In this document: piece after piece, positions 1,925-51,040 of the stretch
Layout: each line of letters begins with the position of its first letter
Position numbering within the stretch: the stretch's first letter is position 1
NCBI RefSeq assembly: GCF_021869535.1
Contig: NW_026262734.1
Coordinates: 19,592,001 to 19,656,000, forward strand
DNA length: 64,000 nucleotides
Direction of reading: 5' to 3'
Source: Mytilus californianus
Taxonomy: Eukaryota
The notes under the pieces: generated by a model
The model's database searches: none
Seen by the model: only the letters and a program-made list of their open reading frames with translations
Told to the model about the DNA's origin: nothing
Made by a program: the position numbers and the translations under genes

Positions 1925-2544
1925 AGTTGCGAGTGAAAATGGTGAGTTGCGAGTTGCAAATAGTCGAATTACGAGTTATCAATGTCGAATTGCGAGTAAT
2001 ACGTAACCAATGCCGTGTTGTGAGGTACAAAAGTCGGTTTGCAGTTAAGAAAGTCGAAATTTATGTAACAAAAAGAGATGAATCTGCTGATTTTTTCTCG
2101 AAATTACGAAAACTAGCAAAATTAATAAAGGCGGGAGATACCTAGGGTACATACAAAATCATAAGTTGAACACATCTTCTTGATTTTTAACGTAACAAAG
2201 TTAATATGAAAATAATAAAGTCCGAGAACCCCTTATCAAGCGAAATGGCGAAATTTTTTAAATTGACATTTCTATAGAATATCTAAGAGAATGAATCAGC
2301 AACAAATGAAGAATCAATGTTCACGTGTAGGGATGGTTATACACGCATATATGACATGTTCTTTATATGAAGCAGCATTTTAAGCTCACATTACTAATTT
2401 CTAAATTAAACCTGACAGCCCATCTGATTTCAGTCATGTTGCAGTGATTTCCCTAATGCTACAATGAGACCAAAATGTTAACACTATTTTTGTCATCAAA
2501 TCAATCTAGAAAAAAGAATTTATACTTAGCCCTTTTTTATTATT
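1925..2544 (+). repeat. Left part of a host duplicated segment interrupted by the Polinton
   Basis: Collinear with ~28540-29232 (GTCGAGTTGCGAGTTA microrepeats followed by the same unique sequence); continues at 21661. Confidence 0.8.
2539..2544. repeat. Left target-site duplication ATTATT
   Basis: Identical 6-mer at 21661-21666; a 6-bp TSD is typical of Polinton integrases. Confidence 0.93.
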
Positions 2545-2653
2545 AGTAGTATTGTAGTGCACGTTCTGAAACAGGAGCAGCTTGGAGGAACTTGGAGGAG
2601 GTCAATCAAAGTTCAAATAAGTGACATTCCAGCAATTGTCAGAATGATGTCAT
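2545..2653 (+). repeat. Left terminal inverted repeat
   Basis: AGTAGTATTGTAGTGCACGTTCTGAAAC...AGAATGATGTCAT; reverse complement of 21552-21660 with one mismatch. Confidence 0.95.
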
Positions 2654-3141
2654 CAGGAATGTTGAAACCTGAACCATAGGAATGTGTGGAATGTGTGTAC
2701 TGATGTATTGTTGATTTTATGAATATTGGTTTAATTTTTTTGAACTAATAAATTTAAACAAGTAACATTCCAACAATTGTAAGAATGTTGTAACGTCAAT
2801 CATAGGAATGCGTGTAAATAGTAAACATTGGTATACCTCTTTCAATAAAGTAACTAATTTTAAAAGAAAATGAATGAAAAGCAGATTCATGACTTTTTAA
2901 CATTTACAGATCGACTTACAGATATATATACATTTTTCTTCAGCAGATACCTTAATCGTTGTTTGCTGTTGAAACTTAAAAACAGTTATTATCGAAAGGA
3001 AAGATTAATAGAAAAACGAAAATATGAAATTCTTTGTTCATTTATTGCACCTTAATTAAAAGTCAGCGTTCAAGGATAATGATAAAACCTTTATAACCTG
3101 CCTTTTTCGTTTAGTTTTGATCAGGATATCGTTGGGTAAAG

Positions 3142-3609
3142 ATGTCCAGAAAGAATTCTAATGATCAGATAGACAGCTTTATTTTTGACACAAGCAAAAA
3201 TTCAATGAACCGATCGAGTATAGCAGCTAGCCTGGAATCTTTGTATGAAAACTACAATGTTCACATACATACGTTAAAATGGTCAGGAGTTGCGATATTA
3301 CTATCCATGATATTAGCAACGCTCGTCCTTACAACTGATATTTATTCATCCGTTCACCTTCCAAGTCATAATTCCTCTGACTGCATCCAAATTAAGACTT
3401 GTGGACCAAATATTTGTAAATTTGTAAAACAGATCAATCTTCCTCACAACTATATTCTTAGTATTTGTGAACAATATAATGAGGTAGATATTAGAGAATT
3501 CATCAGAGGGAAGCCAACGAATAATGCCGTTCAACTTAACATTGATCAACTACGCTACATAAAACAAATTCTACCAACAATATTGAAAAATGCTAAGAGG
3601 AGAAATTAA
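3142..3609 (+). CDS. Polinton accessory protein: single TM segment plus C-terminal PC4/Sub1-like domain (155 aa)
   Basis: Hydrophobic WSGVAILLSMILATLVLTT segment. C-terminal VDIREFIRGKPTNNAVQLNIDQLRYIK resembles the PC4 pattern IDIREY..KPG.KGISL..EQW..LK (by eye). Confidence 0.6.
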   Translation: MSRKNSNDQIDSFIFDTSKNSMNRSSIAASLESLYENYNVHIHTLKWSGVAILLSMILATLVLTTDIYSSVHLPSHNSSDCIQIKTCGPNICKFVKQINLPHNYILSICEQYNEVDIREFIRGKPTNNAVQLNIDQLRYIKQILPTILKNAKRRN

Positions 3610-3787
3610 TCGATTTCTTCACGCATGAATATTTTAGCTAGAAAACTATATTATGTTCCATGAATTTCAAGTATGTGAATAATTTATAGAACAATACCAA
3701 GTATGTGAATAATGTTAACTATTTGACCATTAAATATATATATTCCATGAAATTCGAAGCTAATGTAGTTCATAAGAAAAACCTAAG

Positions 3788-4201
3788 ATGGACCAACAAG
3801 AAAAGAACCGTCTGGTCTGGCACTCATATACATTATATATGTTTAAATTTGCTGAAAATATTATAAAACATACTAGGAAATTAGCAAAAGAACATTGTTA
3901 TGGATGTGAAGTGGATCACCCTAGTCAAAGACACCATACTTGCATTATGTGGACAGACGAAGAACATTTAAATCTATACTTTGATGAAGCCTTTAATTCA
4001 ATGAAGACAGAAACCATTACAGCTCAGTGGAAGGAGGAAATTGAACAATTAAATATACCAGAATTATTGATGACCAGGTTGTTTTCATTTCTTGAAAAAG
4101 AAGCACCTTCACGGGAAGCAATACAAGTCACGGCAGAAAGAATGAGAGCGTTGGAGGAACGTTTTTTTATAACTAATAAAGTGACGTTTAAATTGATGTG
4201 A
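3788..4201 (+). CDS. Polinton accessory protein with putative Zn-binding motif (137 aa)
   Basis: CYGCEVDHPSQRHHTC (CxxC...H...HxC) cluster in an intact ATG-started ORF. Confidence 0.7.
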   Translation: MDQQEKNRLVWHSYTLYMFKFAENIIKHTRKLAKEHCYGCEVDHPSQRHHTCIMWTDEEHLNLYFDEAFNSMKTETITAQWKEEIEQLNIPELLMTRLFSFLEKEAPSREAIQVTAERMRALEERFFITNKVTFKLM

Positions 4202-4340
4202 CAATTTTTTTTTATGTGACTGCTCAGTAAACAACATATTGTGACTTTTGTTTTATCATATAATAAAATACAATATATATAACTGCTTTTGTTTTATTCT
4301 TTTCACTTTTAGTATAGTGTTTCAGTTGTCGCTTCAGATA

Positions 4341-5453
4341 ATGAATGACCAATACAAGGTCCTCGAAAAAATATATTATCAGTTTTCCCAAGGTGGTGCA
4401 TATGTCGGTCCTGATAAATTGTACAGAATATTGAAATCCAAAGGTATAACAATAGGTAGACATCGCGTTCGAAAATGGCTACAGGATCAAGACAGTTACA
4501 GTCTGCAAAAACCAGCTCGAAAGTCTTTTCGTAAAGCACGAGTGGTAGTATCTGGTATTGACGACCAATTCGACGCTGATTTAGCGAACATGTCTAATTT
4601 AAAAGACTCCAACGATCAGTTTTCCCAGCTGTTGTTTGTTATAGACATCTTCAGTAAGTACCTCTGGATCCAGCCTCTGAAAAATAAAACAGCAAAAGAA
4701 GTGGTTAGAGGATTCCAAGTAATATTCAAGAATGGAAGAAAGTGTAATAAATTAAGAACGGATAATGGGACGGAGTTCACCTCTAACGTTTCAAAGTCAT
4801 ATTTTCAAAACGAAGGCATATATCATTTCACAACACAAAATTCAAATACAAAGGCAAATATATGCGAACGTGTCATCAAAACTATAAAAACCAAAATGTA
4901 TAGATATTTCACAGAGAACAGAACATATCGATATATTGATGTATTACAAGATTTAACGTCAAGCTATAATGCAACACCACATCGAACTTTGAATAATATT
5001 GCTCCGAAAGATGTAAACAGTAATAACGAAGCGGATATTTGGGCACACATGTATTTGAAAGCGAAGACGTCAAATAAGGGACTCAAACCCTATCATTTTA
5101 GAATAAATGATTTAGTTAGAATTGCAAGTAAGAATTCAACATTTGAAAGATCATATGATGAGCACTTTACCCGAGAAATTTTTAAAGTACGTAAACGCTT
5201 TCGCATGCAAGGAATACCGATGTATCGTTTAAAATCATTTTTAGACACGGCAGGCGTCATTCGAGGCAACTTTTATGAAAATGAGATGCAGAAAGTTCAT
5301 AAAAATGAAGATAGTTTATGGTATATAGAAAAAAAAATACGCAAACGTAAGAGAAAAGGTATCACTGAATGGCTTGTAAAATTTGAAGGGTGGCCAAAGG
5401 AATATAACCAATGGGTAGCTGAACAAGACATCACAGACAAGGCTGATAGCTAA
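4341..5453 (+). CDS. int: Retroviral-like DDE integrase with C-terminal chromodomain
   Basis: Catalytic motifs FDADL, LRTDNGTEF and ANICERVIKT; chromodomain WYIEK...EWLVKFEGWPKEYNQWV. Likely start is ATG 4341, because the ORF-track extension from 4248 is AT-rich. Confidence 0.95.
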   Translation: MNDQYKVLEKIYYQFSQGGAYVGPDKLYRILKSKGITIGRHRVRKWLQDQDSYSLQKPARKSFRKARVVVSGIDDQFDADLANMSNLKDSNDQFSQLLFVIDIFSKYLWIQPLKNKTAKEVVRGFQVIFKNGRKCNKLRTDNGTEFTSNVSKSYFQNEGIYHFTTQNSNTKANICERVIKTIKTKMYRYFTENRTYRYIDVLQDLTSSYNATPHRTLNNIAPKDVNSNNEADIWAHMYLKAKTSNKGLKPYHFRINDLVRIASKNSTFERSYDEHFTREIFKVRKRFRMQGIPMYRLKSFLDTAGVIRGNFYENEMQKVHKNEDSLWYIEKKIRKRKRKGITEWLVKFEGWPKEYNQWVAEQDITDKADS

Positions 5454-5455
5454 AC

Positions 5456-5875
5456 ATGAGCATGTATGTAATTTTAAGTAGCGATAAGTCCATGAAATAT
5501 TTTCCAAATAACAAACCTTACAGGTTTAGATCACATTTAAGTTCACCTTTAGTACTTGACGGAACGTGGAGGGTTGGACTCGTGGAAGCTGATATTACAT
5601 CAACATCATCAATACAAGATTCGTTATACTTACATTCAAATGTATGTGAGGAATCGATCGTTGATGGAGAAAAAAAAGGAGTTCTGAGACGACTGACACC
5701 TACTGCTATTGGAGATTGGACTATCATCATGGATACGCCCCATTACATGCCTGTAAAAGTAAAAGAGATCTACAACATAGAAATTATTATAACAAATGAC
5801 AATGACGATTTATCTTCATTTATAGACAGACCTTCTACAGTCACACTTCATTTTAAGTCATTTCCATTTTCATGA
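5456..5875 (+). CDS. Minor capsid protein (penton, single jelly roll), compact 139-aa form
   Basis: Y.ILSSD.S..YFP.N....F...L..P..L.G.W.VGL.E N-terminal pattern, LYLHSNVCEESIVDG, and C-terminal TLHFK; lies between INT and MCP. Confidence 0.85.
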   Translation: MSMYVILSSDKSMKYFPNNKPYRFRSHLSSPLVLDGTWRVGLVEADITSTSSIQDSLYLHSNVCEESIVDGEKKGVLRRLTPTAIGDWTIIMDTPHYMPVKVKEIYNIEIIITNDNDDLSSFIDRPSTVTLHFKSFPFS

Positions 5876-6339
5876 ATATGGATTTAAGTAGAATGTATAT
5901 CCCTAATCCTAAAAAATGGATACAATTTTATGATGCAATTGGGAAACAAAAATATAACCCATCTGCAAATCTGAAAAAACAAGCTTACAATAACCAAGTT
6001 GGTGGATCATTAACTGGAACATCAAAACCGTTTATGATTCCTGTGGGTACAATGTCCGCAAACAAGGCTGATTTTTCGAAAGATGTCAAGGTCAAATTAG
6101 TGTCAACAAGCGAACAATTTCTCGAACAAGCCAAAGAAGAAGTCGGAGACACACACGGTTTGAAAAGAAAAGGATCGAAACAAATTATTCATTCTACAAA
6201 ACAACCTCGACAAAGTAAGACGAAGTTAAATAAGGAGAAAGGCAAACCGAGAAAAAATCCCAGGCCAGCAAAACAAACGAAGTCAGGTCTTTCACAAAAA
6301 CCTAAATTCATATATAAAGATATTTTAAGTAAAAAATAA
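5872..6339 (+). CDS. Basic putative virion core/DNA-condensing protein (155 aa)
   Basis: VKLVSTSEQFLEQAKEEV segment, Lys-rich C-terminal half and a NQVGG candidate protease site; stop/start overlaps with both neighbours. Confidence 0.7.
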   Translation: MNMDLSRMYIPNPKKWIQFYDAIGKQKYNPSANLKKQAYNNQVGGSLTGTSKPFMIPVGTMSANKADFSKDVKVKLVSTSEQFLEQAKEEVGDTHGLKRKGSKQIIHSTKQPRQSKTKLNKEKGKPRKNPRPAKQTKSGLSQKPKFIYKDILSKK

Positions 6340-7664
6340 TGGCTTCGTTTACCACCGACGAAATGCAAGAGGCACAACCAAGTGGACTTGACATTTTCTC
6401 TATCCCTCCTTATCAGACGGCCGTGGAGCGTATGTATTATCAAGACGTTCGAACTAATTCACAATTGAGTGGAAACACACCCTTAGAATTTAACGTTTCT
6501 GGACAAAACGGGTTAGAATATGTTGATTTGAAGAGAACAAAATTGTATGTAAAAGCTAAAATAAGGAAAGCAGATGGATCTTCTTTAACAGATACGGAAT
6601 ATGTTGGACCAGTGAATTTGTTTTTACACGCAATGTTTGCACAAGTAGACGTTGCATTACAGGGTAAACTTATTTCGACAGCTACCAACCAATATCCATA
6701 TAAGGCAATGATACAAACATTGTTGTCTTATGGAAGTGATGCTAAAAAAACTCAATTGGGTGCACAGCTTTGGAAGAAAGACACACCCGGATATGTTGAT
6801 GCCAATGATGTAAAGAATTCTGGAAATCAGGCTTTGTATGAGCGCTTTAAGTTATTTGCAGGATCAAAAACATGTGACATGGAAGGTCCCTTACTTAACG
6901 ACCTTTGTAGTATTGATCGCTTTATAATTAATCAAGTACCTATCAGTGTAAAATTGTACAGATCAAGACCAGATTTTTGTCTCGTAACAGCAGAAGAAAA
7001 TCCAAATTTCGAAGTGGTCATTGAAGATATCGTTCTGAAAGTCTGTAAATTACAGATAAACCCAGCAGTGATAGTGGCTCAAGCTCAAAAATTACAATCA
7101 ACCAATGCAAGATACCCCTTCACAAAATCTCAGATCATACCTATGAACATTCCAAGTGGTACTTTGAATATTAACTTTCCAGATTTATTTCTTGGGTCAT
7201 GTCCAGCCCGAGTTGTAATTGGATTTGTTGATGCCGAAGCTGCTGCAGGTAGTTACATCACAAACCCCTTCAACTTTGAGCATTTTAACCTGAAAAACAT
7301 TGGATTATACGTGAATAACATACCCGTTTCAGGTAACATTTTACAGATCAATTTTGACGCTACCACCGGTCGAACGATCATACCGGCATATACAAAATTA
7401 TTCCAAATAACAGAAAAAGACACTCGAGATTCTGGTAATCAAATCACCCGAGATGACTTTGCTAAAGGATATGCATTGTACTGCTTCGAATTAGAACCAG
7501 AATTTGGAGAAAGTGCACACTATTTAACCTTAATAAAACAAGGAAATGTCAGACTAGAAGCTCAGTTTGGTACTGCTCTATCAAAAGCAATCACCTGTTT
7601 CATATATTCAGAACAACAGGGGATGTTTGGTATAACGGCAACTCGCACTATCGAAATAGAATGA
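6339..7664 (+). CDS. Major capsid protein (double jelly roll, hexon-like), 441 aa
   Basis: YVDLKRTKLYV, VNLFLHAMFAQVDV, YPYKAMIQTLLSYG and NPFNFEHF motifs typical of Polinton PY/MCP. Confidence 0.93.
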   Translation: MASFTTDEMQEAQPSGLDIFSIPPYQTAVERMYYQDVRTNSQLSGNTPLEFNVSGQNGLEYVDLKRTKLYVKAKIRKADGSSLTDTEYVGPVNLFLHAMFAQVDVALQGKLISTATNQYPYKAMIQTLLSYGSDAKKTQLGAQLWKKDTPGYVDANDVKNSGNQALYERFKLFAGSKTCDMEGPLLNDLCSIDRFIINQVPISVKLYRSRPDFCLVTAEENPNFEVVIEDIVLKVCKLQINPAVIVAQAQKLQSTNARYPFTKSQIIPMNIPSGTLNINFPDLFLGSCPARVVIGFVDAEAAAGSYITNPFNFEHFNLKNIGLYVNNIPVSGNILQINFDATTGRTIIPAYTKLFQITEKDTRDSGNQITRDDFAKGYALYCFELEPEFGESAHYLTLIKQGNVRLEAQFGTALSKAITCFIYSEQQGMFGITATRTIEIE

Positions 7665-8170
7665 ATACCAATCAGTTGAAAAGTATTATTTCCTGTGACG
7701 CAGATTTAAAGAAACGAGTGGTTGGTATTTTTGCCTCAGATCAATTACCCAATAATGTACGTGAACTAACTGGATTAATTGTAAACACGGATCCAATATC
7801 TAAACCAGGTCAACACTGGATTGCCTTTTATGTGAACAAACAGCAAGAGCTAGAATGTTTCGATTCGTATGGCAATTCGTCAGATCTATATTCTTCTTCA
7901 ATCAAACATTTCATAAGAAGATATGACAAAGTGACATTTAACAATAAACGTCTCCAGGGAGACAAGACGTCTGTGTGTGGACAATATTGTGTTTTTTTTC
8001 TATGGTGTCGTATCAAAGAAAGGCTGTCGATTGTAAAAATGGGAGAGCTTTTTACAAGTGACTATGACTTAAATGATCGATTTGTATTCGATTTTGTAAA
8101 TGATAAATTGTCTCGATGTTTTATGCTTGTAGAACAATCTCAGATATGTATCAGTAAAAATAAATGTTAA
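7661..8170 (+). CDS. Adenain-like cysteine maturation protease
   Basis: IVNTD...GQHWIAF (His), FDSYG (Asp), Q...SVCGQYC (Gln, Cys). Confidence 0.95.
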   Translation: MNTNQLKSIISCDADLKKRVVGIFASDQLPNNVRELTGLIVNTDPISKPGQHWIAFYVNKQQELECFDSYGNSSDLYSSSIKHFIRRYDKVTFNNKRLQGDKTSVCGQYCVFFLWCRIKERLSIVKMGELFTSDYDLNDRFVFDFVNDKLSRCFMLVEQSQICISKNKC

Positions 8171-8272
8171 TAAAAAATATGACTAACCTCTATACTTGTT
8201 TCTCATTTATCTATAAAAAAACAAACATTCACTATACATGTTACCTTATTATTACTTCAACCTTCAAACAGG

Positions 8273-8944
8273 ATGGAAGGCTTGAAAAAACAGCACGCAA
8301 CATTAAAATTCGAATCACCTACATCCATTTTTATGGTAGGTCCTTCCGGATCTGGTAAGACCGTGTTGACAAAACACCTTCTAGAACAAGCAGATGGGAT
8401 GTTTCAAACTCCACCCTCAAGTATATTTTTCTGCTATTCGATTTGGCAACCATTGTATTCTGAAATGCAACAGAGTGTATCATCCATCTTATTTCACAAG
8501 GGTCTTCCCACCATGGACCAGATAAATGAATGGGGAAGTGAACAGGGACATAAACTGCTAGTATTTGACGATCTTATGATAGAAGCAGCTGATAGTATGG
8601 CATTAGTGCATATTCTTTGTGTTGGCTCTCATCATCATAATATAACAATTCTTCATTTACTTCAAAACGCCTTCCCAAAATCAAAATCAATGCGGACGGC
8701 TTCATTGTCCGTTCATTATTTCATACTCATGAAAACAAAAAGAGACCTTTTACAAATCAATACTTTAGGTAGACAAATATTTCCTGGAAAATTGAAATAC
8801 TTTATGGATGCTTACAATAAATCAACGAGTAAACCGTTTGGTTACTTGGTTCTTGATTTAAGTCTCAAAAGCGACGAACAATATCAGTTGCGTACTAACA
8901 TTCTACCAGGACAGAACCCCATTGTCTATCTTCCTGAAAAATGA
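8273..8944 (+). CDS. A32/FtsK-family genome-packaging ATPase
   Basis: Walker A GPSGSGKT, Walker B LLVFDDLM and SHHHNIT..L.QN motif. Confidence 0.95.
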   Translation: MEGLKKQHATLKFESPTSIFMVGPSGSGKTVLTKHLLEQADGMFQTPPSSIFFCYSIWQPLYSEMQQSVSSILFHKGLPTMDQINEWGSEQGHKLLVFDDLMIEAADSMALVHILCVGSHHHNITILHLLQNAFPKSKSMRTASLSVHYFILMKTKRDLLQINTLGRQIFPGKLKYFMDAYNKSTSKPFGYLVLDLSLKSDEQYQLRTNILPGQNPIVYLPEK

Positions 8945-9234
8945 AGAAGTATGAAGCTTTAGTCAAGTATTTAATGGAATCAAAACAAAGGAAAAAAGTT
9001 ATATCAACCTTATCAAAGACCCAACTACAGGTCGTTACAGAAATTGTTTTCAACGTTATACAAGGAGTATGTCCTCTCTCAGATAACGATATAAATACGC
9101 TAAGAAGACACAAAGCAGCCATTCGTAGATTAACCGTTTCGAACTTAACACTGAAAGAAAGACGGATTCGTTTGCAGAACATCAGTAGAGTTTTACCAAT
9201 TTTACTTACATCATATATGAAATATGTCGCGTGA
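8941..9234 (+). CDS. Conserved small basic Polinton protein (protein X/'gasderminX'-like of adintovirus annotations), 97 aa
   Basis: TEIVFNVIQGVCPLS...LRRHKAAIRRL pattern recalled from Polinton small ORFs; ATGA overlap with the ATPase gene. The family name is an inference. Confidence 0.6.
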   Translation: MKKYEALVKYLMESKQRKKVISTLSKTQLQVVTEIVFNVIQGVCPLSDNDINTLRRHKAAIRRLTVSNLTLKERRIRLQNISRVLPILLTSYMKYVA

Positions 9235-9610
9235 AATGGTGCTTATTCCTAAATATAAGTATGATAGACTAATTAAAGACTTTGAAAACAAACAACTTAA
9301 TGATGAACATCATGAAAAAAAACCCCAAGAAGACCATACTGAAGAAATTTTTACGACAGAAAACGACATTAAACCACAAAACAAGGACGATGTAGAAGGA
9401 CAAAAAATAAATATGGATGAACATCAAGAGACAAAAATACACAACGAAAATTTAAATGGGGTTGAAACCGAAAAATCTCAGTCGTATCTAAAAATGAAAC
9501 CTTCAACATTTCTTAAAGTCAAACAACTTAAAAGCACAATGAGGAATGCAGGGGTAAAAACTATGAAAAGGTCACAAACTAGAACAAAATGGTTGACATT
9601 TAAAATATGA
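9224..9610 (+). CDS. Polinton protein of unknown function (128 aa)
   Basis: EMVLIP..KY..L N-terminus, acidic middle and basic C-terminus ending KWLTFKI; overlaps the upstream ORF by 11 nt. Confidence 0.65.
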   Translation: MSREMVLIPKYKYDRLIKDFENKQLNDEHHEKKPQEDHTEEIFTTENDIKPQNKDDVEGQKINMDEHQETKIHNENLNGVETEKSQSYLKMKPSTFLKVKQLKSTMRNAGVKTMKRSQTRTKWLTFKI

Positions 9611-9709
9611 GTGGTATGTCAGAAATGTTTACAATAGAATGTGTGGAATCCCTGATATTTATAAATATATAAGAGCCGCAATCTGTTCACATTATTATTC
9701 ACATCGACC

Positions 9710-12700
9710 ATGGCTGATAGTTTTCTTCAATTTTTAAAACAACGTTATCCTAGAGGAAACGAACAGCTCGAAAGATTATTTCAAGACTTTAACGAGACAT
9801 TAAATAATTCTGAATTCAGCGAGTGTGATGAAGAAGCATTGGTTCGGGCAGCTGACGCATCAGAATCACTTTACAATCGGAAAAGGAAATCAAATGAAAC
9901 GATTCAACAATGGGAAAAGAAAGCGCTATATCAATGTGACTTATGTGATGCAGAATTTACCAAAAAATTCAATCTATCGCGTCATATGAACACACACACA
10001 AGGAAGAGATATGAATGTCGTAAATGTAGCAAAACCCTATCACGTTTAGAGAACTTGAAAAGACACGAGAAAATGTGTATTCGCGCTTCAGAATCCCATA
10101 AAAAACAAAGACAATTTCCATGTAGACATTGTGGCTTACCTTTTGATACATATGAGGATCTTTTTGATCACATCAATGTAGAGCATCCATTGAATCAAAC
10201 TGGAGGTCAGGCAGGGCAAGTCGTGGATCAAATGCATTCAATCACAAACAGTTCTCCTCCATTATCGTCTGATCCGTCTATCAGCACCTTGAATCCGCAA
10301 ATCGAAAACATCAATCCTTTACCTACTGAAAAGAAAAGAAGGAATCATAGGGTTAAAAAATCTGCTTTGAACGATTCCGTTAATCAACTTGAAATAATTC
10401 CAGAAGGAAATGAAAAATACGATCTTCTACAATTTTTTTCGAACGTTAAAGGAGATATACAACAAATAGTCGAGTCTAGGAAAAAATATATGAGAGACAT
10501 TAAATGGTATTTGAATGTCAAAGTTGAAATGGAACGTGATATTCAAGATGGTCAAACAGAAACAGTCTTACCCAGTTTTAGGAGTAGAAATTATGTGTCC
10601 TTGTTTAATGATGATCACTTAGAACATAATTTAAACGAGGCTTATCAAAAGATGCATCGAAGTCTTGAAGAATACATCAATAGAGGCTCAAATTGGATAA
10701 TACGGAAAGTTGTACACTTAGAAGTAAGAACAGTAAAATACGCACCTATTAATGGTTCGTCATACATGCAGCTTCCTTCAACCATAAAACTGTGTAAAGG
10801 TGTAATCAACATTCAAAATGATGATAATAAATGCTTCCTCTGGTCTGTTTTGGCTGCAATTCATCCGACTGATAACAACGCTCATCGTGTAAATAAGTAT
10901 AAACCGTTTGAAAATGAATTGAACACGACAGGAATTGATTTTCCTGTTCCAATTAAGCAGGTGGAAAAATTTGAAAAACTAAACAACCTTTCAATTAACG
11001 TTTTCGGATATGAAGGTGAACAGATTTTCCCTTTAGCTTTATCTAAATCAAGAAACAGCCATCAAAATATTGACTTGTTGTATTTATCAAACGATAAACA
11101 ATCACACTACTGTTTGATTAAGAATCTTAATAGATTTTTAAGACAAACAAACCAAAATCATGCACATTTCTTTTGTCGACGGTGTTTGCATGGCTTTATA
11201 AGAGAAGACCTGCTTGCAAGTCATCAACCCTATTGTGATCAAATAGATTTTCAGAGAGTACAATATCCGAAAGAAGGCGACAATATTTTAGAATTTAATG
11301 ACTTTTACAAAGCAATAAAAATAAGTTTCACCATCATAGCTGATTTTGAATGTTTTTCAAGAAAGATGGATACAAGTCTACCAAACCCGAAGAAATCATC
11401 GATTACACACGAAACGAAATTTGAACCATCGGGGTACTCCTACATAGTCCTATGTACGAACGATGATTATTCTAAACCACCTGTGGTTTATAGAGGAGAT
11501 AGAGTCATAGAACACTTTTTTGAAGACATGGCTATCGAAGAGGAATATATCAATGACATACTTGGAGAACCTGAGCCTTTGATAATGAATGATGAAGCAG
11601 AACAAGCGTTTCAACTTATCACCAACTGTGAGGTTTGTCAGACACTTTTTGATGAAAATGTAATTAAAGTACGAGATCATGCACATCATGGAATAACCAG
11701 AGACCCCAGAAAAAAAGATTATACTAATTATCGTCTTGCATTATGTCAGCGGTGTAATTTAAGTCTAAAAGAACCATCATATATTCCTGTATTATTCCAC
11801 AATGGTAAAAATTTTGATACACATTTACTACTACAAAAGGCTGATTGTTTTAAAGATAAGCCAATATCCTGTATTCCCAATAACATGGAAAAATACGTAT
11901 CACTCACTATAGGAAATCTTCGCTTTTTGGACACATGTCAATTTCTAAATAGTTCTCTAGACACTCTAGTGAAAAATTTATCACAAGAAGGACCTACGCA
12001 TTTTCGACAGTTCAAAAAAGCGTTTCCGTCTGAGGACATAGCAACACTTTTATTGAGGAAGAATGAATATTGCTATGATTACGTGGACTGCGAAGAGAGA
12101 TTTCAAGAAAGGCAATTACCATCAAAAGAAGCCTTTCACAATCGCCTAACGGATGAACCCATTTCGGATCAGGATTATAATCACGCTCTTGAAGTTTGGA
12201 ATACCATGAAAATGAATAATTTGGGTGACTTTCACGATCTATATGTAATGACGGATGTTCTACTTTTAGCAGACGTCTTTGAACGATTTAGAGACATAAC
12301 TATGGAAAATTATGGTTTAGATCCCTGTCATTTCTTTACAGCCCCTGGTCTCGCATGGCAAGCTGCGTTGAAAATGAGTGGAGTTTCGCTAGAATTGATT
12401 ACAGACCCTCTTATTTACAATCTTGTGGAACTTGGAACGAGAGGTGGAATAGCCTCTATTAACCAAAAGTATGCTAAAGCCAACAATAAATATGTGAAAG
12501 ATTTCGATCCTTCAAAACCATCATCACACATATTATATACGGACTGTGGAAACCTTTATGGGGCTGCTATGATGCAACCATTACCAACGGGTCTGTTTAG
12601 ACTGTTGAAGGATGATGAAATACAGCAAGTTAATATAAATGAGATTGAAAAGGATGCATCTACGGGATACATCTTAGAGGTGGATCTGGAATATCCCCCC

Positions 12701-14318
12701 GAACTACATGATCATCATAATTGTTATCCACTAGCTCCATCTCACAAGAAAGTTGAAATGGAAGAGCTGTCTTCTTACAGTCAAAATCTTTGGAAAGACC
12801 TAAATGGTGAAAATGCATCTAAAGTCGTCACCAAAAAACTTATCCCTACATTGGAAAATAAAGACCATTACATTCTACATTATAGAAATTTACAGCTATA
12901 TCTTGAACTTGGAATGAAGGTAACCAATATACATCAGATTGTAGAGTTTCATCAGTCAAGATGGTTGAAGACCTATATTGACTTCAATAGTCAAAAAAGA
13001 AAGGAGGCCAATAATGTGTTTGAGAAAGAATTCTACAAGTTAATGAATAACAGTGTTTTTGGTAAGTTTGTTGTTTTTTTTTTTTGCGTTGTAATGTCTT
13101 TTACTTTTTTTTATTTTCTAATAAGAAACGAAAAAAATCGAACATTGAATTCATAAAAGCAATTTAAAAAAAAATGAAAATATTAATCGATCTTTTACTT
13201 GTAGGAAAGACCATGGAAGATATTCGCAGACATAGAAACGTAAAACTTATGTCAGACCAGAAGAAATTGGTAAAATATACGTCGAAACCGTCCTTTGACC
13301 ATTTTCAGATATTTAACCAACACCTTGTGGGTATAGAAAACAAAAAAGTGAACATTCTTTTAAACAAACCAATCTATGTTGGTCAGGCAATATTGGACAT
13401 TTCGAAAGCACTGATGTATGAATTCCACTACAAAATAATGAAGCCCATGTATGGAGAAGATATTCGATTGCTTTTTACGGATACTGGTAAATATTTTATT
13501 TTTTTTTATATTTTATGGGGATAAAAGACAAGTAGTACATAAGTTATCAATTTTACCGCTTCGACCATGCATGTTTCAGTTAAATAAATTCAGTCGGCAA
13601 CAGAATTATTCGGCTAGTCAAAGCTAAACAATGATGTAATTCTTATTTTCTTACAGACAGCTTGTGTTACGAAATCATGACAGATGATGTATACAAGGAT
13701 ATGGAAATCATCAAAGACCATTTCGACTTTTCTGGATATCCTCAAACTCACTACCTATTTTCAAACAAATACAAAAAAATGCCTGGAAAATTCAAAGATG
13801 AACTAGATGGTAACTAATTTTATTATTAATCGATTAACAAAAACTTAAAAATAACAAATATTGAATATAAAAAAAACAAAGTCCAAAGAAAAAAAATAAT
13901 ACCATTGAGATTTTTTTTATTTTACAAAAATCTATTTCTTTTTAACCTAATTTTAAACCTAATTTTTAACTAAATACTTGATGAATTTCGTTTTGTTTCA
14001 GGCGTTCCAATTAAAGAGTTTATTGGATTGCGACCAAAAATGTACAGTTTGATATATGATGACGACAACACGGAACAGGAAAAGAAAACTGCCAAAGGAA
14101 TAAAAAAATGTGCCGTCAAAAAACAGTTAAAACATGCCAATTATAAAGAATGTTTATTTCAAAATGCATCGACAATGAATTCAATGAAATTGATAAAAAG
14201 TCAAAATCATGAACTCTTTGTCAACCATATTGTCAAAAAAGGTTTATCTAATTTTGATGAGAAAAGATTTTGGATTAATCATATTAAGAGTTATGCCTAT
14301 GGACATTTTAAAATATGA
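9710..14318 (+). CDS. polB: Protein-primed family B DNA polymerase, 4 exons (9710-13061, 13205-13486, 13657-13809, 14002-14318), 1367 aa
   Basis: Domains in order: C2H2 fingers, terminal-protein-like region, vOTU-like (KCFLW...SHY), Exo I ADFEC, EndoVII-like Zn insert, Exo II HNGKNFD, Exo III TDVLLL, motif A YTDCGNLYG. Motif B KLMNNSVFG|KT and motif C FTDT|DS are restored by GT-AG splicing; exons total 4104 nt with no stops. Confidence 0.95.
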
Positions 14319-14437
14319 TTAATCCAAAATCTTTATATCAATTATGTTTTATGTTTTATTTTATAATATACTATGTAATTTGAAATAAAATTTTTTTTAT
14401 TTTTTAAAAACTTTAATGGAATGCCTCAAACAAACTT

Positions 14438-15425
14438 CATCTTACAGAGAGTACATAGATTTTTTATTGAGTATTTACGTCATTAAATAGACCTAAAAGG
14501 TCTACACTGTTCACCTCTTCTATTCTCCTTTTTTTGGGAGCCGTATATGGTGGAGGTGGTGGAGGCATTTCTGCTGATCCCCTTGAGGATGGTAAATTAT
14601 ATTCTGGCTTATAGGTTGCATAGGTTGCAGACCCAAAAGGTTCTTGATCATAGGTTACAGATCCACTAGCTTCGGGTTGATAATTTGGCCCACTGGTACT
14701 TTTATTCTCCTAAAATATTTTTTTTATTTATTTTTTTTTTTTTGCATTTTTTTTATATATTTTATAAGTTTTATATATTTTTTTCGTTCCTTAAGCGAAA
14801 GTTAGTTCTTCGAAAATGAATATGTGTTTGGTAGAACAAACTTCAAGTCTGATAAGTTATATAATAAGATCAACATACATTATTAAAACCCACCCACCCC
14901 CTTATTTTAGCTTTAAGACAGCATTTACATATTATAAAAACATATTTTCAACTTAATTGACTGTTTTGACACCTGAGCTAATACCACTTTTTTTTGTCTC
15001 ATTGGCAAATACCATTTGTCTCATTGACAAAAAAAAAAAACATTTTTATTTTGTCCTATTGGGCAATTATACCACAAATGTTTTTAAATAAGAAAAATAA
15101 CTTACTTTGAAGTTTTCTTTTAAGAGTTCAAGCTGGCTTACCAGTTCCCCGAACTGTACAGCTTCTTCGAAAGAAAACGAAATCCGTCCTCCAAAATTTG
15201 GTCTATTATCATAGACGTTTATCCAAAATTTCCCTATTGATGACTGCTGCATCAGTAAATTCTTCTGATTTCCAAAGCGGTGGGAAAATTCTATTTTCCC
15301 ATTTCTCATTTTTTGAAGAAAAACAAACCTAGAGCTATTCTCCATAATAATTATTAATAAAAGACTTTTATTCTATGAGAAATTAGAAATGAGAAAGTCT
15401 TTATATATGTACTCTCTGTAAGATG
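14438..15425. repeat. Perfect 20-bp inverted repeat pair (14438-14457 and 15406-15425) bracketing the minus-strand PC4-like gene
   Basis: CATCTTACAGAGAGTACATA on the left and TATGTACTCTCTGTAAGATG on the right. Confidence 0.85.
14464..15345 (-). CDS. Two-exon gene (15345-15106, 14709-14464), 161 aa: PC4/Whirly-like N-domain, PPPPPPY motif, PKKRR NLS
   Basis: Phase-0 GTAAGT donor at 15105 and TTTTAG acceptor at 14710; the 246-nt second exon is open to TAA. GGRISFSFEEAVQFGELVSQL resembles the PC4 strand-helix. Confidence 0.7.
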
Positions 15426-15717
15426 CGATGAAACCAACCCCTTGTCAAGAAAAAATTAACTCCACCCACCCCAAAAAGCTTCATGTCATACCATTAGTCC
15501 GTTTTGAAGCATGAAAATTTGAATAATCATTTTGGGAAATTTTCCCACCCACAAATTTCCCGCCAAAGTCCCACAATTTATTCATACAAAAAAATTACAC
15601 GTGCACATAACACAACAAATATCGCAACCAATAAAGAATGACATTGAATTCATATAACATAAAAATACATACCAGAGGGGAAAAAAAAGACAACGCAAGA
15701 ATAGGGGAACACTTACA

Positions 15718-17266
15718 CAAAGCATGTTTCTGGCAATAAGGAAGATGTAGAAATTCCAAAATTAAGAAAATGGATTAAAGACATTGAAGAAAGAAACGGG
15801 GCGCGACAGACCACTTGGGGAGTGATCAAAGATTTGACACGTCCTGTTGAAACTACATTTATATACCCCGTAGCTTCTGCGGAGAAGATTAGCCAACGAA
15901 AAAAGACGATGTATTTAAATGGTTAAATTGTATATATATATTAGTTTATTTTAAATTATTATTTTTCACAACAGAAATTTCTCTCCCTTTGATGGGGTCG
16001 TACCACTCAGCAGATTGGAGAGGCTAGGCCCTATTTCTATATCCCGGGAATCCCTCGGGGCACAGAAAAAAAAAAAAGCAAAGCATGTTTTTTTGACAAT
16101 GAGGAAGATGTAGAAATTCCAAAATTAAGAAAATGGATTAAAGACATTGAAGAAAGAAACGGGGCGCGACAGACCACTTGGGGAGTGATAAAAGATTTGA
16201 CACGTCCTGTTGAAACTACATTTATATACCCCGTAGCTTCTGCGGAGAAGAGTAGCCAACGAAAAAAGACGATGTATTTAAATGGTTAAATTGTATATAT
16301 ATATTAGTTTATTTTAAATTATTATTTTTCACAACAGAAAGTTCTCTCCCTTTGATGGGGTCGTACCACTCAGCAGATTGGAGAGGCTAGGCCCTATTTC
16401 TATATCCCGGGAATCCCTCGGGGCACAGAAAAAAAAAAAGCAAAGCATGTTTTTTGACAATGAGGAAGATGTAGAAATTCCAAAATTAAGAAAATGGATT
16501 AAAGACATTGAAGAAAGAAACGGGGCGCGACAGACCACTTGGGGAGTGATAAAAGATTTGACACGTCCTGTTGAAACTATATTTATATACCCCGTAGCTT
16601 CTGCGGAGAAGAGTAGCCAACGAAAAAAGACGATGTATTTAAATGGTTAAATTGTATATATATATATTAGTTTATTTTAAATTATTATTTTTCACAACAG
16701 AAAGTTCTCTCCCTTTGGTGGGGTCGTACCACTCAGCAGATTGGAGAGGCTAGGCCCTATTTCTATATCCCGGGAATCCCTCGGGGCACAGAAAAAAAAA
16801 AAGCAAAGCATGTTTTTTGACAATGAGGAAGATGTAGAAATTCCAAAATTAAGAAAATGGATTAAAGACATTGAAGAAAGAAACGGGGCGCGACAGACCA
16901 CTTGGGGAGTGATCAAAGATTTGACACGTCCTGTTGAAACTATATTTATATACCCCGTAGCTTCTGCGGAGAAGAGTAGCCAACGAAAAAAGACGATGTA
17001 TTTAAATGGTTAAATTGTATATATATATTAGTTTATTTTAAATTATTATTTTTCACAACAGAAAGTTCTCTCCCTTTGGTGGGGTCGTACCACTCAGCAG
17101 ATTGGAGAGGCTAGGCCCTATTTCTATATCCCGGGAATCCCTCGGGGCACAGAAAAAAAAAAGCAAAGCATGTTTTTTTTTGACAATGAGGAAGATGTAG
17201 AAATTCCAAAATTAAGAAAATGGATTAAAGACATTGAAGAAAGAAACGGGGCGCGACAGACCACTT
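15718..17266 (+). repeat. Tandem array, ~361-bp unit x ~4.3, each unit a putative ~297-nt exon plus ~64-nt intron
   Basis: Unit starts near 15721, 16082, 16444, 16807 and 17167. Each has a GAT|GTATTT donor and TTTTCACAACAG acceptor, both phase 2, around an open frame KFSPFDGVVPLSRLER...EIPKLRKWIKDIEERNG. Confidence 0.8.
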
Positions 17267-17781
17267 ATGATTGATTTAGTCTTCTTTTTAAAAGGATATA
17301 AAAATAGCAATCAATAATTAAATTGATACTAAACCGAAATGTATTGTATTTTTCCTTCTAGTTAAAACACGCACAAATATAATATTCCGGAATAATTTCA
17401 CTCTCCTACACATCGTTTATTTATTTAGTATATCCCCTACATAATTAATCTATTTTCAACCAATCAGAGTTTTGTTTTAAAGACATAACAGTGACTTAAT
17501 ACCAACATTTAAATACAACGTACTCAAAATTATTGTTAATTAACAAACTCATGAAAATAATATAAAGAGAATTAATGATATTATTAAAATATGATTCATT
17601 TATACCATAGAAAGATAACTGATACTAAAAATTCTAAAAAAACATTTTAAATCTCCTTTACAATATGAAAAGTATCTCTTTAGTATTTAGTCAAATCTCT
17701 TTCCCATACAAATGTCATTTCATTTTCGCGCCATATCATGTAAGAAAATTTTCAGTAAACAAACAACAACAAATTGATAAA

Positions 17782-19177
17782 ATGAACATCTTCATCTTCG
17801 TTTTGATAGTGCAAGTTATTGCGTCACCTGCACGCAAGTCTGAAAGAATTGGAGAAGATTGTGAGAACGAGAGAGACGCCATACGCTGTCGTTACACTGG
17901 AATCAAGGATTACATCTTGAAGAAGCCACGGAAGGAAGTGTCCACCCTAATAATGGATCGCTTGTTTGAGCCATCCACACTCAAAGTAGATGGTATAACA
18001 GTACGCATAGAAGACGGGGACATTGAGTGGTGCTGCCACCATATAGAAGGGGCAACAGCTGTTTATGTTCACGATGAACAGTGTGTAAGTCTTCGTTTTT
18101 CTTCTTAATTATCCCCTGACTGCTCTTGTCCCTACAATTATCAATGTATTTATTCTTATTTATAAAAAAATAGATAATATTGTATGGTGAAGCAAAGTAA
18201 ACAAACCAACTTAGCCAAAAAAAAAATGAAAAAAAATGTTTCATTTGAACCCCCCCCCCCCCCCCCCCCCCCCCCCTCCCCTTTATTTTTGTTTTCTTAA
18301 AAAAATACTTTCCCTTTAATGAAAACAATGTTAAACATATTCAGACACTGGTTAAGAGAGTTATTTGACAATATTTTTTTATCTAAAGTAAGTTTCTAAA
18401 TGCTTACCATTGTAGATATTTTTTTCAGCCTACAACTACAGTGAAATCCATTGAATCTTCACTTTCATCAACAACAGTTAACTCTACCATGTCTTCACTT
18501 TCATCAACAACAGTTAACTCTACCATGTCTACAGAATTTAAAAATGTGGTATGTATAATTAATTATGATAAAAACAACATTAACACTCATACCATATCTT
18601 CTTATTTTTGAAATGAATACAAATTGTTGTTAACTTGACCTGACATTAACATAGAGTAATGATTGAAAATTAATGTTTTCTATTATTTTTCAGACTGTTG
18701 GTACCATCATGACAAACATGGAAGGTTGGGTCATTCCCACCGTTTCAATTTTATGTGGTAAGTTTGATAGGATATATATATATCTGAAGTAAATGTTAAA
18801 AAAAAATTCACTAATAAGGAAAATCATACACAAGCACTAAGAAATTCAGAAAGTTGGTATTAAACGGAATTGTGAAAAAGACTTTAAAAGTTAACATATG
18901 ATGATAAATACATTAAGCAAAAAAGAAATACTATTCATAAAAAAATAAATACAATTTAATCAAAATAAAATACAATTAAAGATAAAAAAAAAACACAGAA
19001 AAGGAAAATATAATTACACAATAAAAATACTGAGAAGAAAAGTAAGTTCAAAATAACTATCTTTATTTTTTTTTTTCCTTTTCAGTGCTTCTTGTCATAG
19101 CATTTGGACTTATGTTATATTGTGCCTACAAAAAAACTAGTATTCATATTATATCTTGTGGCAGAAAAAACCAATAA
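17782..19177 (+). CDS. Four-exon type I membrane glycoprotein (17782-18084, 18429-18548, 18694-18757, 19086-19177), 192 aa
   Basis: Signal peptide MNIFIFVLIVQVIA, 5-Cys ectodomain, Ser/Thr stalk with two NST sequons, TM WVIPTVSILCVLLVIAFGLMLYCAY, then KK. Donors GTAAGT/GTATGT/GTAAGT have consistent phases (0,0,1). Confidence 0.82.
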
Positions 19178-19193
19178 TTGAAATGTGGGAGTT

Positions 19194-19394
19194 ATGACAT
19201 TTGGACATTCTTCTTTTTTTTCAGTTTTAATTATCCTTTTGAGCACTACAACATTAATTATAATTAAATATCAAAAGAAAAGGACAGTAAACATTGAGCA
19301 ATTTCAAATGGAACAATTTCCACTGGATCAAAGTTGTGAAAATGATGAAGAAATATCATTAGATGAAACATCAGATATCATTTTTAGTAGATAA
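19194..19394 (+). CDS. Small single-pass membrane protein with acidic tail (66 aa)
   Basis: FFSVLIILLSTTTLIIIKYQKKR hydrophobic-then-basic segment followed by an acidic tail; short ORF. Confidence 0.45.
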   Translation: MTFGHSSFFSVLIILLSTTTLIIIKYQKKRTVNIEQFQMEQFPLDQSCENDEEISLDETSDIIFSR

Positions 19395-19407
19395 TTAAAT
19401 TTTTCAG

Positions 19408-19668
19408 AATATATATTGACTGTGGTGATGATTGTAGTGGGTATAATTGAAATTATTAGAAAATTTAGACAAAGACTTCAAAATTTACTTCGCCGTCTTG
19501 AAAACAATGCTGCACAACCACAACAAGATGCTCAACCACAAGCTGCGCTACCTGCTCAAGATCAACAAATACCCCCCCCAAAATCAACCGATACCAGCTG
19601 TCAATGTAATACCAGTACTGAGAAGATCTCAAAGACAAATTAAGCCTGTTATAAGACTGAACTTGTAG
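19408..19668 (+). CDS. Terminal exon of a TM protein with Q/P/A-rich tail (possible alternative last exon of the 17782 gene; probable 1-nt frameshift in the C8 run near 19572)
   Basis: TTTTCAG acceptor at 19407 is phase 1 and matches the donor at 18758. Translation EYILTVVMIVVGIIEIIRKFR...; Q/P-rich composition continues in the shifted frame to LRRSQRQIKPVIRLNL. Confidence 0.5.
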
Positions 19669-20186
19669 TCAATTGTTCTGTATGGGTAAATATTCTATGT
19701 GAAGTTTTTTTAACAATGTTGTTGATTCTTTTTGAGTTTTCCTTAATGTTTTAGACATGTTAAAAATCTGGTTTTACCACTACCTATAAAAACATTTAGT
19801 TTCAATAGTTCCCATCTTTAAACAATTATATCTTATATCTATAATTTTATTTTTTTAATATAACTGATTTTTATATGGTAGATACCTTAACATGTAAAGT
19901 TAAAGCTTAACTATGAATACATAAAAAAAACTTACCATTTTCCCGCCTAATTGTACAAAAGTTCGCGCCAGTTCTAAAAGAAAGTTTTCGCGGTCTTTTC
20001 TTTTATATGAAACGTGGGTATGTATCATGTTTTTACATCAATCAATTTTAAGTGTCATGTTACACCTTCAGTCTTGACAACTAAATGATTGGTTATTATA
20101 ATTATGATACATGGTGTTTATGAAAATAGTATCCGTTGGATCTTGCACTTGACAGGTTTATAGACAACTTTTTTGTTATACATTCC

Positions 20187-20368
20187 AGTTTGATATTTAA
20201 GAGAGAAACATTCATACTTTTGATTGTTTAATTAGTCTCTATAGATCTCATTTTACATATGGACCAATTTATCCAAGTTTGATATTTAAGAGAGAAACAT
20301 TCATACTTTGATTGTTTAATTAGTCTCTATAGATCTCATTTTACATAGGGACCAATTTATCCAAGTTT
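20187..20368. repeat. Two-copy ~89-bp tandem duplication
   Basis: AGTTTGATATTTAAGAGAGAAAC... starts at 20187 and 20276. Confidence 0.85.
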
Positions 20369-20695
20369 AGTATATGGTATATTGTTGCATTTTTATGGTT
20401 TTGTCGTGTTTAAGATATCTTTTTTTTATCATACAGACTTTTTTATATGATCATGTGTGTACTTTGATTGTTTCTTTAAATCACATTTAACACTGGGAAT
20501 CATTTATCCTAGTATGACATATTGCTGCATTTTTTTTTTCAAAGATCAATTTATTTCCTTTTATTTAGAAACCTTTTTGCAAGAAAAAAATAAGATAACT
20601 GATTTTATACTTTATACTTTATAATAGTTCAAAGTTTAATATATGTTAATTTAGTGAGCTCAATATATTTTCTCTCAGGTCAAATGTTTTTTTTT

Positions 20696-21186
20696 ATTTA
20701 CTGATTTTTTACATGGTGTTAAAGATTGATCATATGTATGTATATTGTTGATGTTGTCATATATTGTTTTTTTATAGTCTATTTTACATCATGTAATAAG
20801 TGCCAAAATATAGTGTAAATACATAGTAGTATTCATTGCATAATTTTCCTGAAGTCATAATTTCATAATAGCATTCATCACATAATTGTCCTCAACTGGT
20901 GTATTTCTTTTAATCAAAAATATCTCGGGTAACATATTTTATTTACTGATTTTTTACATGGTGTTAAAGATTGATCATATGTATGTATATTGTTGATGTT
21001 GTCATATATTGTTTTTTTTATAGTCTATTTTACATCATGTAATAAGTGCCAAAATATAGTGTAAATACATAGTAGTATTCATTGCATAATTTTCCTGAAG
21101 TCATAATTTCATAATAGCATTCATCACATAATTGTCCTCAACTGGTGTATTTCTTTTAATCAAAAATATCTCGGGTAACATATTTT
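20696..21186. repeat. Two-copy 245-bp tandem duplication, with a degenerate partial third copy to ~21320
   Basis: ATTTACTGATTTTTTACATGG... starts at 20696 and 20941; the copies are near-identical. Confidence 0.88.
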
Positions 21187-21551
21187 CGAATGATATATCA
21201 GGTTATATGTTTTTATATATTGATGTTTTACAACAATACATTGCATAATTTTCTCAAGTCATATATTTCTTCAATCAAAAAAGATCTCGGGTAACACAAT
21301 CAGGTTATATGTTTTATATATTGTTTTACAACAATAATGGATAGATGCTTAGGTTGTCTTTTAATATATATATATAGTTTATTGAGAACATGATGTTTAC
21401 TTGAAAAATAATTTAGACACTTGAAACAGTGATGTTAAATGTGAATAAATTTTAATCTGTTTTAATCATCTTTTTCTTTTTCCAAGCCATTTACTAGCTG
21501 TCAAAACAACATATTAGTTTCTATACTCAAGAAGGTATACCAATGTTTACA

Positions 21552-21660
21552 ATGACATCATTCTGACAATTGCTGGAATGTCACTTATTTGAACTTTGAT
21601 TGACCTCCTCCAAGTTCCTCCAAGCTGCTCTTGTTTCAGAACGTGCACTACAATACTACT
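21552..21660 (-). repeat. Right terminal inverted repeat
   Basis: Reverse complement of 2545-2653. A further 18-bp match links 21533-21550 to 2821-2838. Confidence 0.95.
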
Positions 21661-21666
21661 ATTATT
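21661..21666. repeat. Right target-site duplication ATTATT
   Basis: Immediately follows the ...CAATACTACT terminus. Confidence 0.93.
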
Positions 21667-35049: not shown

Positions 35050-35570
35050 ATATGGCCGTATTCACCACAAATTTTACTCTAAGTACAGACAAACCTGTGC
35101 ACCTGGAAAAGTTTTAAGGCATGGCAGGAACTAGATAATTAAATTTTATGTTTCAGAAAATTATAAACTTTTCTGGATTTTGCTATTCATTCCTGCAGAC
35201 GGTGCCAAAATAAACTAAGTTGGGAAAGAGGTTTGAGAAGTTCCCCTCATATAATAAATGTTATTACTGAGTGGTATTGATTTAAATGGACAATAGATGG
35301 ACAATAGAATTTGCAAACAATAGGTGATTTAAACTATGTAAACGGAGTGACCGTATCAAATGAAACTCATGTGCATATTTATTTTGCTATCTTCTGCAGA
35401 CTGGAAAAAAATGCACATCAAAATCCAGGTAAGTTTTTAATTTTCTGAAACATAGACTACATATAACTTTTATATATCTAGGTCCTGCCATACCTTAAAA
35501 CTTTCCTAGATGCATAGTTTGTCTCTACTCATAGTAGATTTTGTGGTGTAAACATGGCCGTATTTTTCAA
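35050..35570. mobile_element. Older diverged copy of the same MITE family
   Basis: Inverted arms AGTACAGACAAACCTGTGCACCTGGAAAAGTTTT / AAAACTTTCCTAGATGCATAGTTTGTCTCTACT and a shared internal sequence. Confidence 0.65.
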
Positions 35571-35876
35571 TTCCTTTTGATGATCCTTAAACACAATAAT
35601 AAATCGATCAATTCAATTAAAAAAACTTCAAGGCTTACATTTAGAATGGTCATCCGCTTATTAACCAATGATATGAATAATTATTTTTCAGATATTTTAA
35701 ATAGACTTTCTTAACTCGCAACTCAACTTTTGTAACTCGCAACTCGACTTGTGTAACTCGAAACTCGATTTTTGCAACTCGCAACTGGACTTTTTTTAAC
35801 TTGCAGTTCGACTTTTGTATCTGGAATCTCAATACTTGACTAAAAGAAACCCTCATATGTCAAGTATATACTTTAA

Positions 35877-50900: not shown

Positions 50901-51040
50901 AGCTCCATTTATAGTACTACTTTCTAGTACATTGTATTGACGGAACACTACATTTATAGTACTACTTATTAGTACATTTTATTGACGGATCACTCTATTT
51001 ATAATAATACTTACTAGTACATTGTTTTGACGAATCACTT
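47985..51040. repeat. Minisatellite, 45-bp unit (TCCATTTATAGTACTACTTACTAGTACATTGTATTGACGGATAGC), roughly 65-68 copies
   Basis: 45-nt periodicity is directly visible; diagnostic variants recur at 540 bp. Confidence 0.97.

Follow-up and report, generated by a model that had tools for sequence, protein, structure and literature searches.

Termini, target site and core genes

This study concerns a Polinton (Maverick) element of the mussel Mytilus californianus, found in a window of 64,000 nucleotides (assembly GCF_021869535.1, contig NW_026262734.1, positions 19,592,001 to 19,656,000 of the forward strand) whose own numbering is used throughout. The element is complete, with all six core genes intact, and occupies 2545-21660 (19,116 bp), its first letters being AGTAGT. 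Comparison of its ends identified terminal inverted repeats (TIRs) of 109 nt at 2545..2653 (plus strand) and 21552..21660 (minus strand) that are identical at 108 positions, the sole mismatch lying at position 30 and the likeness ending at position 110, and a 6-bp target site duplication (TSD), ATTATT, on either side (2539..2544 and 21661..21666, plus strand). A first-pass annotation of this DNA, made from the letters alone, had claimed one difference in 109 nt and a perfect TSD, and both were found as described. The ends are of the AG-/AGT-type and correspond to the (AGT)2 end motif of Polintons (PMC8097293). On the inner side of the TIRs a 38-nt match links the two ends of the element (2821-2858 and about 21513-21550), and near 2746-2791 the TIR is echoed, further inward, over 46 nt; both are possible protein-binding sites. 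A joint between 2653 and 2821 was considered as a deletion class and rejected, as it is the element's own right end.

The boundaries are confirmed by an old duplicate of the host flanks, identified by self-comparison at 28570..29489 (plus strand), which is 71-78% identical to them and is uninterrupted at 29227-29232. Aligned separately, the left flank is 71% identical to the duplicate (641 columns) and the right flank 78% (271 columns). The distance from TATACT to GAATGTT is 21 nt both at the insertion, with the element removed, and in the duplicate, with 11 of these 21 letters identical and four of the six opposite the target. This spacing is kept in the duplicate, and the insertion contributed the element and one target copy only, which upholds the anchor spacing, collinearity, fixed boundaries and single target copy of the first-pass annotation. 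Its 'paralogous empty site' stands as a boundary marker but gives no age and was rejected for that use: over 4,214 aligned nt the two host blocks agree at about 80%, so that the duplicate is old and the insertion cannot be dated from it. The old tandem duplication of the host region pairs 1889-28403 with 28570-38125 (about 80% identity overall), its best part being 27255-28403 against 36982-38125 (88% identical). No conserved coding blocks were found between the host duplicates at the thresholds applied, and no host gene was identified.

Ten plus-strand open reading frames (ORFs) stand ahead of the large ORF of the DNA polymerase, PolB. The first two were taken from the ORF list (3142..3609, 155 aa; 3788..4201, 137 aa); the former has a PC4-like look and neither a Pfam nor an Atlas match. 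An rve integrase with a C-terminal chromodomain follows (4341..5453), then a minor capsid protein, or penton (5456..5875), a basic ORF of 155 aa (5872..6339), a major capsid protein (6339..7664), an adenain-like cysteine protease (7661..8170), an A32/FtsK-type packaging ATPase (8273..8944) and two ORFs of 97 aa (8941..9234) and 128 aa (9224..9610). In L001 and L071 homologues of the basic ORF occupy the equivalent place and, judging from position, the protein may have a virion core role. By eye, L002 has an ORF of similar look behind its ATPase, where the 97-aa ORF lies here, and the N-terminus of the 128-aa ORF is conserved in L002 and L004.

The integrase matches PF00665 at 1.7e-08, above the cut-off, and shares its D,D35E residues (D80/D141/E176) with its relatives, which makes it an rve integrase. 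The protease is above the cut-off for PF00770 and the ATPase just below that for PF04665, and the motifs of both are conserved: relatives share the protease residues H52/D68/C106 and the Walker A and B motifs of the ATPase, as they do the exonuclease and polymerase motifs of PolB. Pfam recognised neither capsid protein nor the polymerase core. The 441-aa ORF is full length relative to its homologues and its model, with a confidence score (pLDDT) of 86, has its best matches in the capsids of Sputnik, iridovirus, mavirus and PBCV-1 (top E 8e-15), so that the modelled fold is the double jelly roll of a major capsid protein. The model of the 139-aa protein (pLDDT 96) matches a PBCV-1 capsid chain with Z 14.1 (root-mean-square deviation 3.0, 134 aligned) and the mavirus penton with Z 11.5 (2.8, 125 aligned), and is by this predicted fold a penton-type protein with a minimal single jelly roll. 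Truncation of this penton was considered and rejected, as many relatives have 135-150 aa and the ORF is therefore full length for its family. The first-pass annotation had listed the integrase (D,D,E), protease (H,D,C), ATPase, both capsid proteins and spliced PolB as intact, and their motifs are indeed conserved and their frames open; its term 'virus-competent' is to be read as coding capacity, that is, possession of the genes. All Polinton class features open to testing were found, and as a member of its class the element is ordinary.

The polymerase gene and its predicted introns

PolB is predicted to be encoded by four plus-strand exons. Exon 1 (9710..13061) of this protein-primed polymerase carries C2H2 fingers, the conserved C375/H466, the exonuclease and motifs A and B. 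Intron 1 (13062..13204, 143 nt) precedes exon 2 (13205..13486), which ends inside motif C; intron 2 (13487..13656, 170 nt) divides the last Asp codon of that motif, and exon 3 (13657..13809), intron 3 (13810..14001, 192 nt) and exon 4 with the stop (14002..14318) complete the gene. All three predicted introns are GT-AG and phase 1, the spliced frame has 1,367 codons and a stop without any internal stop, and the three junctions lie just past motif B, inside motif C's final Asp and at a conserved Gly. Membership of the PolB family is indicated by the 7,016 relatives found and by the residues of the exonuclease and the polymerase, which 114-119 of 115-119 relatives conserve.

In all three loci with a complete set of exons (L016, L067, L070) the exons are collinear and without inserts; five of 71 loci had any PolB match. 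Within 12617-14322 the nine indels listed, beside which there are 22 further rows, all nine lie in predicted introns, which make up 505 of these 1,706 nt. Among 120 PolB relatives 83 extend to exon 4, and breaks in the relatives, read by eye from the printed ends, fall in four cases at the position of intron 1 and in six at that of intron 3. These breaks, which are features of gene calls and not of DNA, point to an intron-bearing clade, and two intron positions are, on this indirect evidence, seemingly common to relatives of 41-57% identity. Ten further relatives, among P0137-P0156, end in their gene calls at a common break three codons ahead of intron 1. This suggests that a sister clade has a second intron site within motif B. 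Self-comparison revealed no mutual similarity between the three introns, and an introner origin was rejected on this ground.

Intronless core ORFs, as in intact vertebrate and nematode Mavericks, are a described trait and not a definition of the class, and the mussel element does not share it. The intact vertebrate elements are intronless (PMC8097293), in contrast to the three predicted spliceosomal introns of the mussel PolB, and in nematode Mavericks the core genes are likewise intronless, introns being confined to cargo (10.1101/2022.07.12.499685). Dinoflagellate Polinton-like elements do carry spliceosomal introns inside the element (PMC11957031); however, those are mobile, repeated introners, unlike the mutually dissimilar introns found here. 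The literature covered, to which neither Repbase nor most subscription papers belong, yielded no paper on PolB introns in animal Polintons.

Several PolB relatives carry PF03175, which suggests the Alpha class of adintoviruses; the window PolB itself gives no PF03175 score. A search of PDB sequences with exon 1 returned only zinc-finger proteins in the best 60 of 142 rows, and IMG/VR contained a single distant PolB locus. Upstream of the exonuclease, a Cys/His pair is conserved in 88 of 89 and 101 of 102 relatives and may belong to an OTU domain. On that assignment the pair would fit the TP-vOTU-exonuclease-palm architecture described for protein-primed PolB (PMC11161782). The mussel enzyme differs from these polymerases and from adintoviruses by its N-terminal C2H2 fingers and its introns, whereas the element shares with adintoviruses the integrase and the adenovirus-like virion genes (PMC8502044).

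Probable insertion polymorphism and antisense RNA

From 24 sequencing runs listed, with no RNA run on record among those that contain the element, four were aligned to 2000-16078: X2 and X5, which are DNA runs of separate studies; X21, raw RNA under the organism label of the best-matching DNA runs; and X17, which bears another organism label, is RNA by guess and has contigs about 96% identical. An 859-nt contig of X2 matches 2014-2544 with 6 differences and 1 gap, its other 327 letters lying off the stretch, and the match of the X5 flank contig likewise ends at 2544, so that both DNA runs aligned agree. A filled site should go on matching for some distance inside the repeat, and an empty allele is therefore likely in both samples. 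The core contig of X2 (6,478 nt) differs by 5 letters and 1 gap and is 99.9% identical, while that of X5 (7,913 nt) differs by 27 letters and 5 gaps. Both contigs may come from sibling copies or else from the same insertion on another haplotype. Core depth resembles flank depth in order of magnitude, which gives no copy number and suggests few full copies. The insertion is likely to be recent and absent from other individuals or chromosomes of the same species. The element was called young by the first-pass annotation, and this holds on evidence other than its own, namely the likely empty allele and the 99.9% identical contig of X2. It had also proposed a search for near-identical copies, for which contigs of 99.6-99.9% identity in two independent studies are candidates, and read-mapping across both junctions, for which the contigs of two samples stop at 2544 and the empty allele is an inference from the left junction only.

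Identity between terminal repeats is not a strict clock, and raw reads across either junction were not seen, which raises the possibility of a misassembled element or of an old and fixed fossil, young in appearance only. However, this is highly improbable for three reasons: first, the TSD is perfect and the host duplicate collinear; second, the core genes have neither stop nor frameshift; and third, the contigs of both studies are nearly identical to the window copy.

Transcription of the core genes in the sense direction was not seen in either RNA run. In X21, of which about 6% was read, 5 of 10.3 million records were placed and 0 fell on core genes. X17 covers 27 of 30 bins, and five of its seven listed joints have CT..AC ends, the others being a replaced stretch in intron 3 of PolB and a TA..AT skip. 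On the minus strand these five joints are GT-AG introns (4677-5633, 5751-7140, 8460-8815, 8460-10139 and 8934-10139, together spanning 4677..10139) whose donors are consensus and whose acceptors are rich in pyrimidines, with a chance probability of about 0.003 per joint. The probable RNA of X17 over the core genes is therefore antisense, and its retention of the sense PolB introns is as expected of such RNA. A protein-coding role for it was rejected, as its exons have no open stretch longer than 96 aa, a lack of long frames that fits a host or an element origin alike. The RNA check for capsid expression that the first-pass annotation had proposed came out negative in these two runs, and of its 'virus-competent' element the genes stand, whereas the only spliced RNA detected is antisense.

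Most likely, on the simplest reading, a copy of the element in the related species is read backwards by the host, and the RNA could feed small-RNA silencing as a precursor. Molluscs express the PIWI-interacting RNA (piRNA) pathway in soma and germline (PMC6128900). With piRNA-cluster transcripts, which carry transposons in antisense and are processed into piRNAs of 24-30 nt, the RNA of X17 has in common that it is long, non-coding and antisense to a young element of a mollusc. No paper on antisense spliced Polinton RNA was found within the same literature coverage.

Alternatively, the element may itself produce the antisense RNA as a built-in latency switch, using the promoter of a predicted minus-strand gene that starts at 15345. 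This gene has two exons (15345-15106 and 14709-14464; 14464..15345, minus strand) and converges on PolB, the antisense donors and acceptors are all consensus in the window copy also, and the splicing is alternative, with two donors and two acceptors forming three joints within 8460-10139. However, the RNA comes from one run of one organism label and is absent from X21, the depth of X17 is nil at 14690-15159 with loose ends at 14455 and 14540, so that nothing links it to the promoter, and cryptic splice sites are common in AT-rich DNA. We regard such a switch as unlikely.

A further possibility, and the stronger reading of the first-pass annotation, is an active virus that moves between mussel species and forms particles at times, be it in a certain stage or in response to stress. 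The full morphogenesis module is present with correct predicted folds, and the X17 copy suggests purifying selection on the capsid and protease genes, where 16 of 31 changed codons are synonymous against about 21-22% expected and no stop occurs (39 rows listed, 378 further); in the integrase all five listed changes are synonymous. The DNA occurs under three organism labels, and Mytilus edulis, M. coruscus and M. galloprovincialis are the species labels of near-identical proteins: their capsid and ATPase entries, the closest found, differ from those of the window at 8-11 of 441 and 1-7 of 223 residues, and between the entries labelled M. edulis and M. coruscus the capsid differs at 12 of 441 and the ATPase at 5-8 of 223. 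Against this, the two RNA runs aligned hold no sense RNA, IMG/VR contigs contain no capsid relative, and vertical descent under selection could also account for the near-identical proteins; Polinton virions, moreover, had not been observed according to PMC8097293 (2021) and 10.1101/2023.08.22.554363 (2023). An active virus would be compatible with the explanation preferred below, and is advanced here as a tentative possibility.

Accessory regions and the proposed life of the element

The right arm of about 7 kb (14,320-21,550) contains, beyond the minus-strand gene, a tandem array of a 363-bp unit at 15718..17266 (4.3 copies, differing by 1-6 substitutions and short indels), the head-to-tail joint of which is present in X2 and X5 too. 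By eye, each unit has a possible GT-AG intron of 53-55 nt and short frames whose register depends on the length of homopolymers. A predicted spliced gene for a type-I membrane protein follows on the plus strand (17782..19643), with exons at 17782-18084, 18429-18548 and 18694-18757 and three candidate alternative last exons (19086-19177, 19225-19394 and 19408-19643). The predicted protein has about 190-240 aa, a signal-like start, a Cys-containing domain and a Ser/Thr-rich stalk, and the candidate last exons are consecutive, share phase 1 and each open with a hydrophobic stretch that completes a helix. Among 88 acceptors scanned, three of the six of this kind fall in a 330-bp cluster, by a criterion set after they had been seen. 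No homologue of the first exon was found among longer proteins, which is weak evidence. Recent tandem duplications lie near the right end (20187-20368 and 20692-21186; 88 bp and 246 bp, 97-99% matches). In L002, a distant Polinton with a different polymerase, the region beyond PolB (14553-16252) has, by eye, Thr/Ser-rich repeats as well as a hydrophobic stretch with a Pro/Gln-rich tail behind it, and such accessory genes may recur among Polintons. Genes for PLA2X, gasdermin or cupiennin were not recognised in the element, in the course of searches none of which was aimed at them.

Outside the element, 305-nt stretches at 1-305 and 57711-58015 are 99.7% identical in opposite orientation, and the second lies beside frameshifted ORFs (55101-57439) that have no Pfam support and, by their motifs, look like a reverse transcriptase; together they are probably a young retroelement. 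A 45-bp satellite at 47989-51032 has 67.7 copies, and one of its minus-strand frames is open for 753 codons.

In its general plan the element agrees with intact vertebrate Polintons (PMC8097293), with which it shares TIRs, the (AGT)2 motif, a 6-bp TSD, a size within 12.7-24.6 kb, the order of integrase, penton, small ORF, major capsid and protease, an ATPase, a protein-primed PolB and lateral accessory regions. Its core genes lie all on one strand, a layout that the same source gives for Xenopus tropicalis only. Nematode Mavericks share the intron-containing accessory genes near a terminus and a type-I membrane protein, and transcription of their genes was likewise not detected; their membrane protein, however, is an 866-aa herpes gB-like fusogen (10.1101/2022.07.12.499685), in contrast to the much shorter mussel protein with its Ser/Thr-rich stalk and three candidate tails. 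Bivalve genomes have been reported to hold 107,631 viral regions, of which 58.5% are of Polinton type (10.1101/2025.04.19.649669, a 2026 preprint). A GTDB scan found one related Polinton contig, L071, filed in the genome bin of a bacterial symbiont, where it is probably host contamination.

Taken together, the evidence makes it likely that this is a complete Polinton, recently inserted by its own integrase, probably polymorphic, with a polymerase predicted to be spliced by the host, and probably mostly silent. On this explanation the integrase likely inserted the element recently into the old host duplication. Transcription would take place in the nucleus, where the host spliceosome would remove the three PolB introns; starting at the TIRs of an excised linear form, the polymerase would copy it with its own N-terminal protein domain as primer, and the integrase would insert that form with a 6-bp stagger. 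Copying and integration are drawn here in part from what is generally known of the family. A fused terminal-protein domain and protein-primed copying are modelled in PMC11161782. Between such events the element may be latent, a state perhaps enforced by antisense RNA.

Several observations weigh against this explanation. The capsid departs from all six close relatives at 5 of 441 positions. A sense-strand PolB splice occurs in none of the runs examined, X17 keeping the PolB introns, and the silence is that of one raw RNA run. X17 itself is RNA by guess and comes from another organism label at about 96% identity. Finally, the empty allele was deduced and not read through, 21667 onward lies beyond the aligned stretch, and 359 further contig pieces could include a filled junction.

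A more elaborate joint reading would make the element a nuclear virus in latency: its polymerase would be spliced, its core genes repressed by an alternatively spliced antisense RNA of its own making, and the anchor and cytoplasmic tail of its three-tailed membrane glycoprotein exchanged by the three alternative last exons, while the element would still be inserting and crossing between Mytilus species. Taken as a whole, this reading, the exchange of tails included, is very doubtful. The likely explanation set out above leaves a genuine, intact and probably polymorphic Polinton, a modest variant of an ordinary class.

As a complete, low-divergence and probably polymorphic copy, the element would allow integration and latency to be observed in natural mussel populations. 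Introns that cut the catalytic motifs of PolB imply nuclear transcription and host splicing, and surveys based on ORFs would score Polintons split in this way as broken. Of the new results, the antisense nature of the RNA over the core genes is the most useful. A coral study took the expression of hallmark genes to speak for the production of virions, and its text does not use the word 'antisense' (PMC11131425). RNA that covers hallmark genes of Polintons can be spliced and antisense, and unstranded read counts are therefore no evidence of capsid expression.

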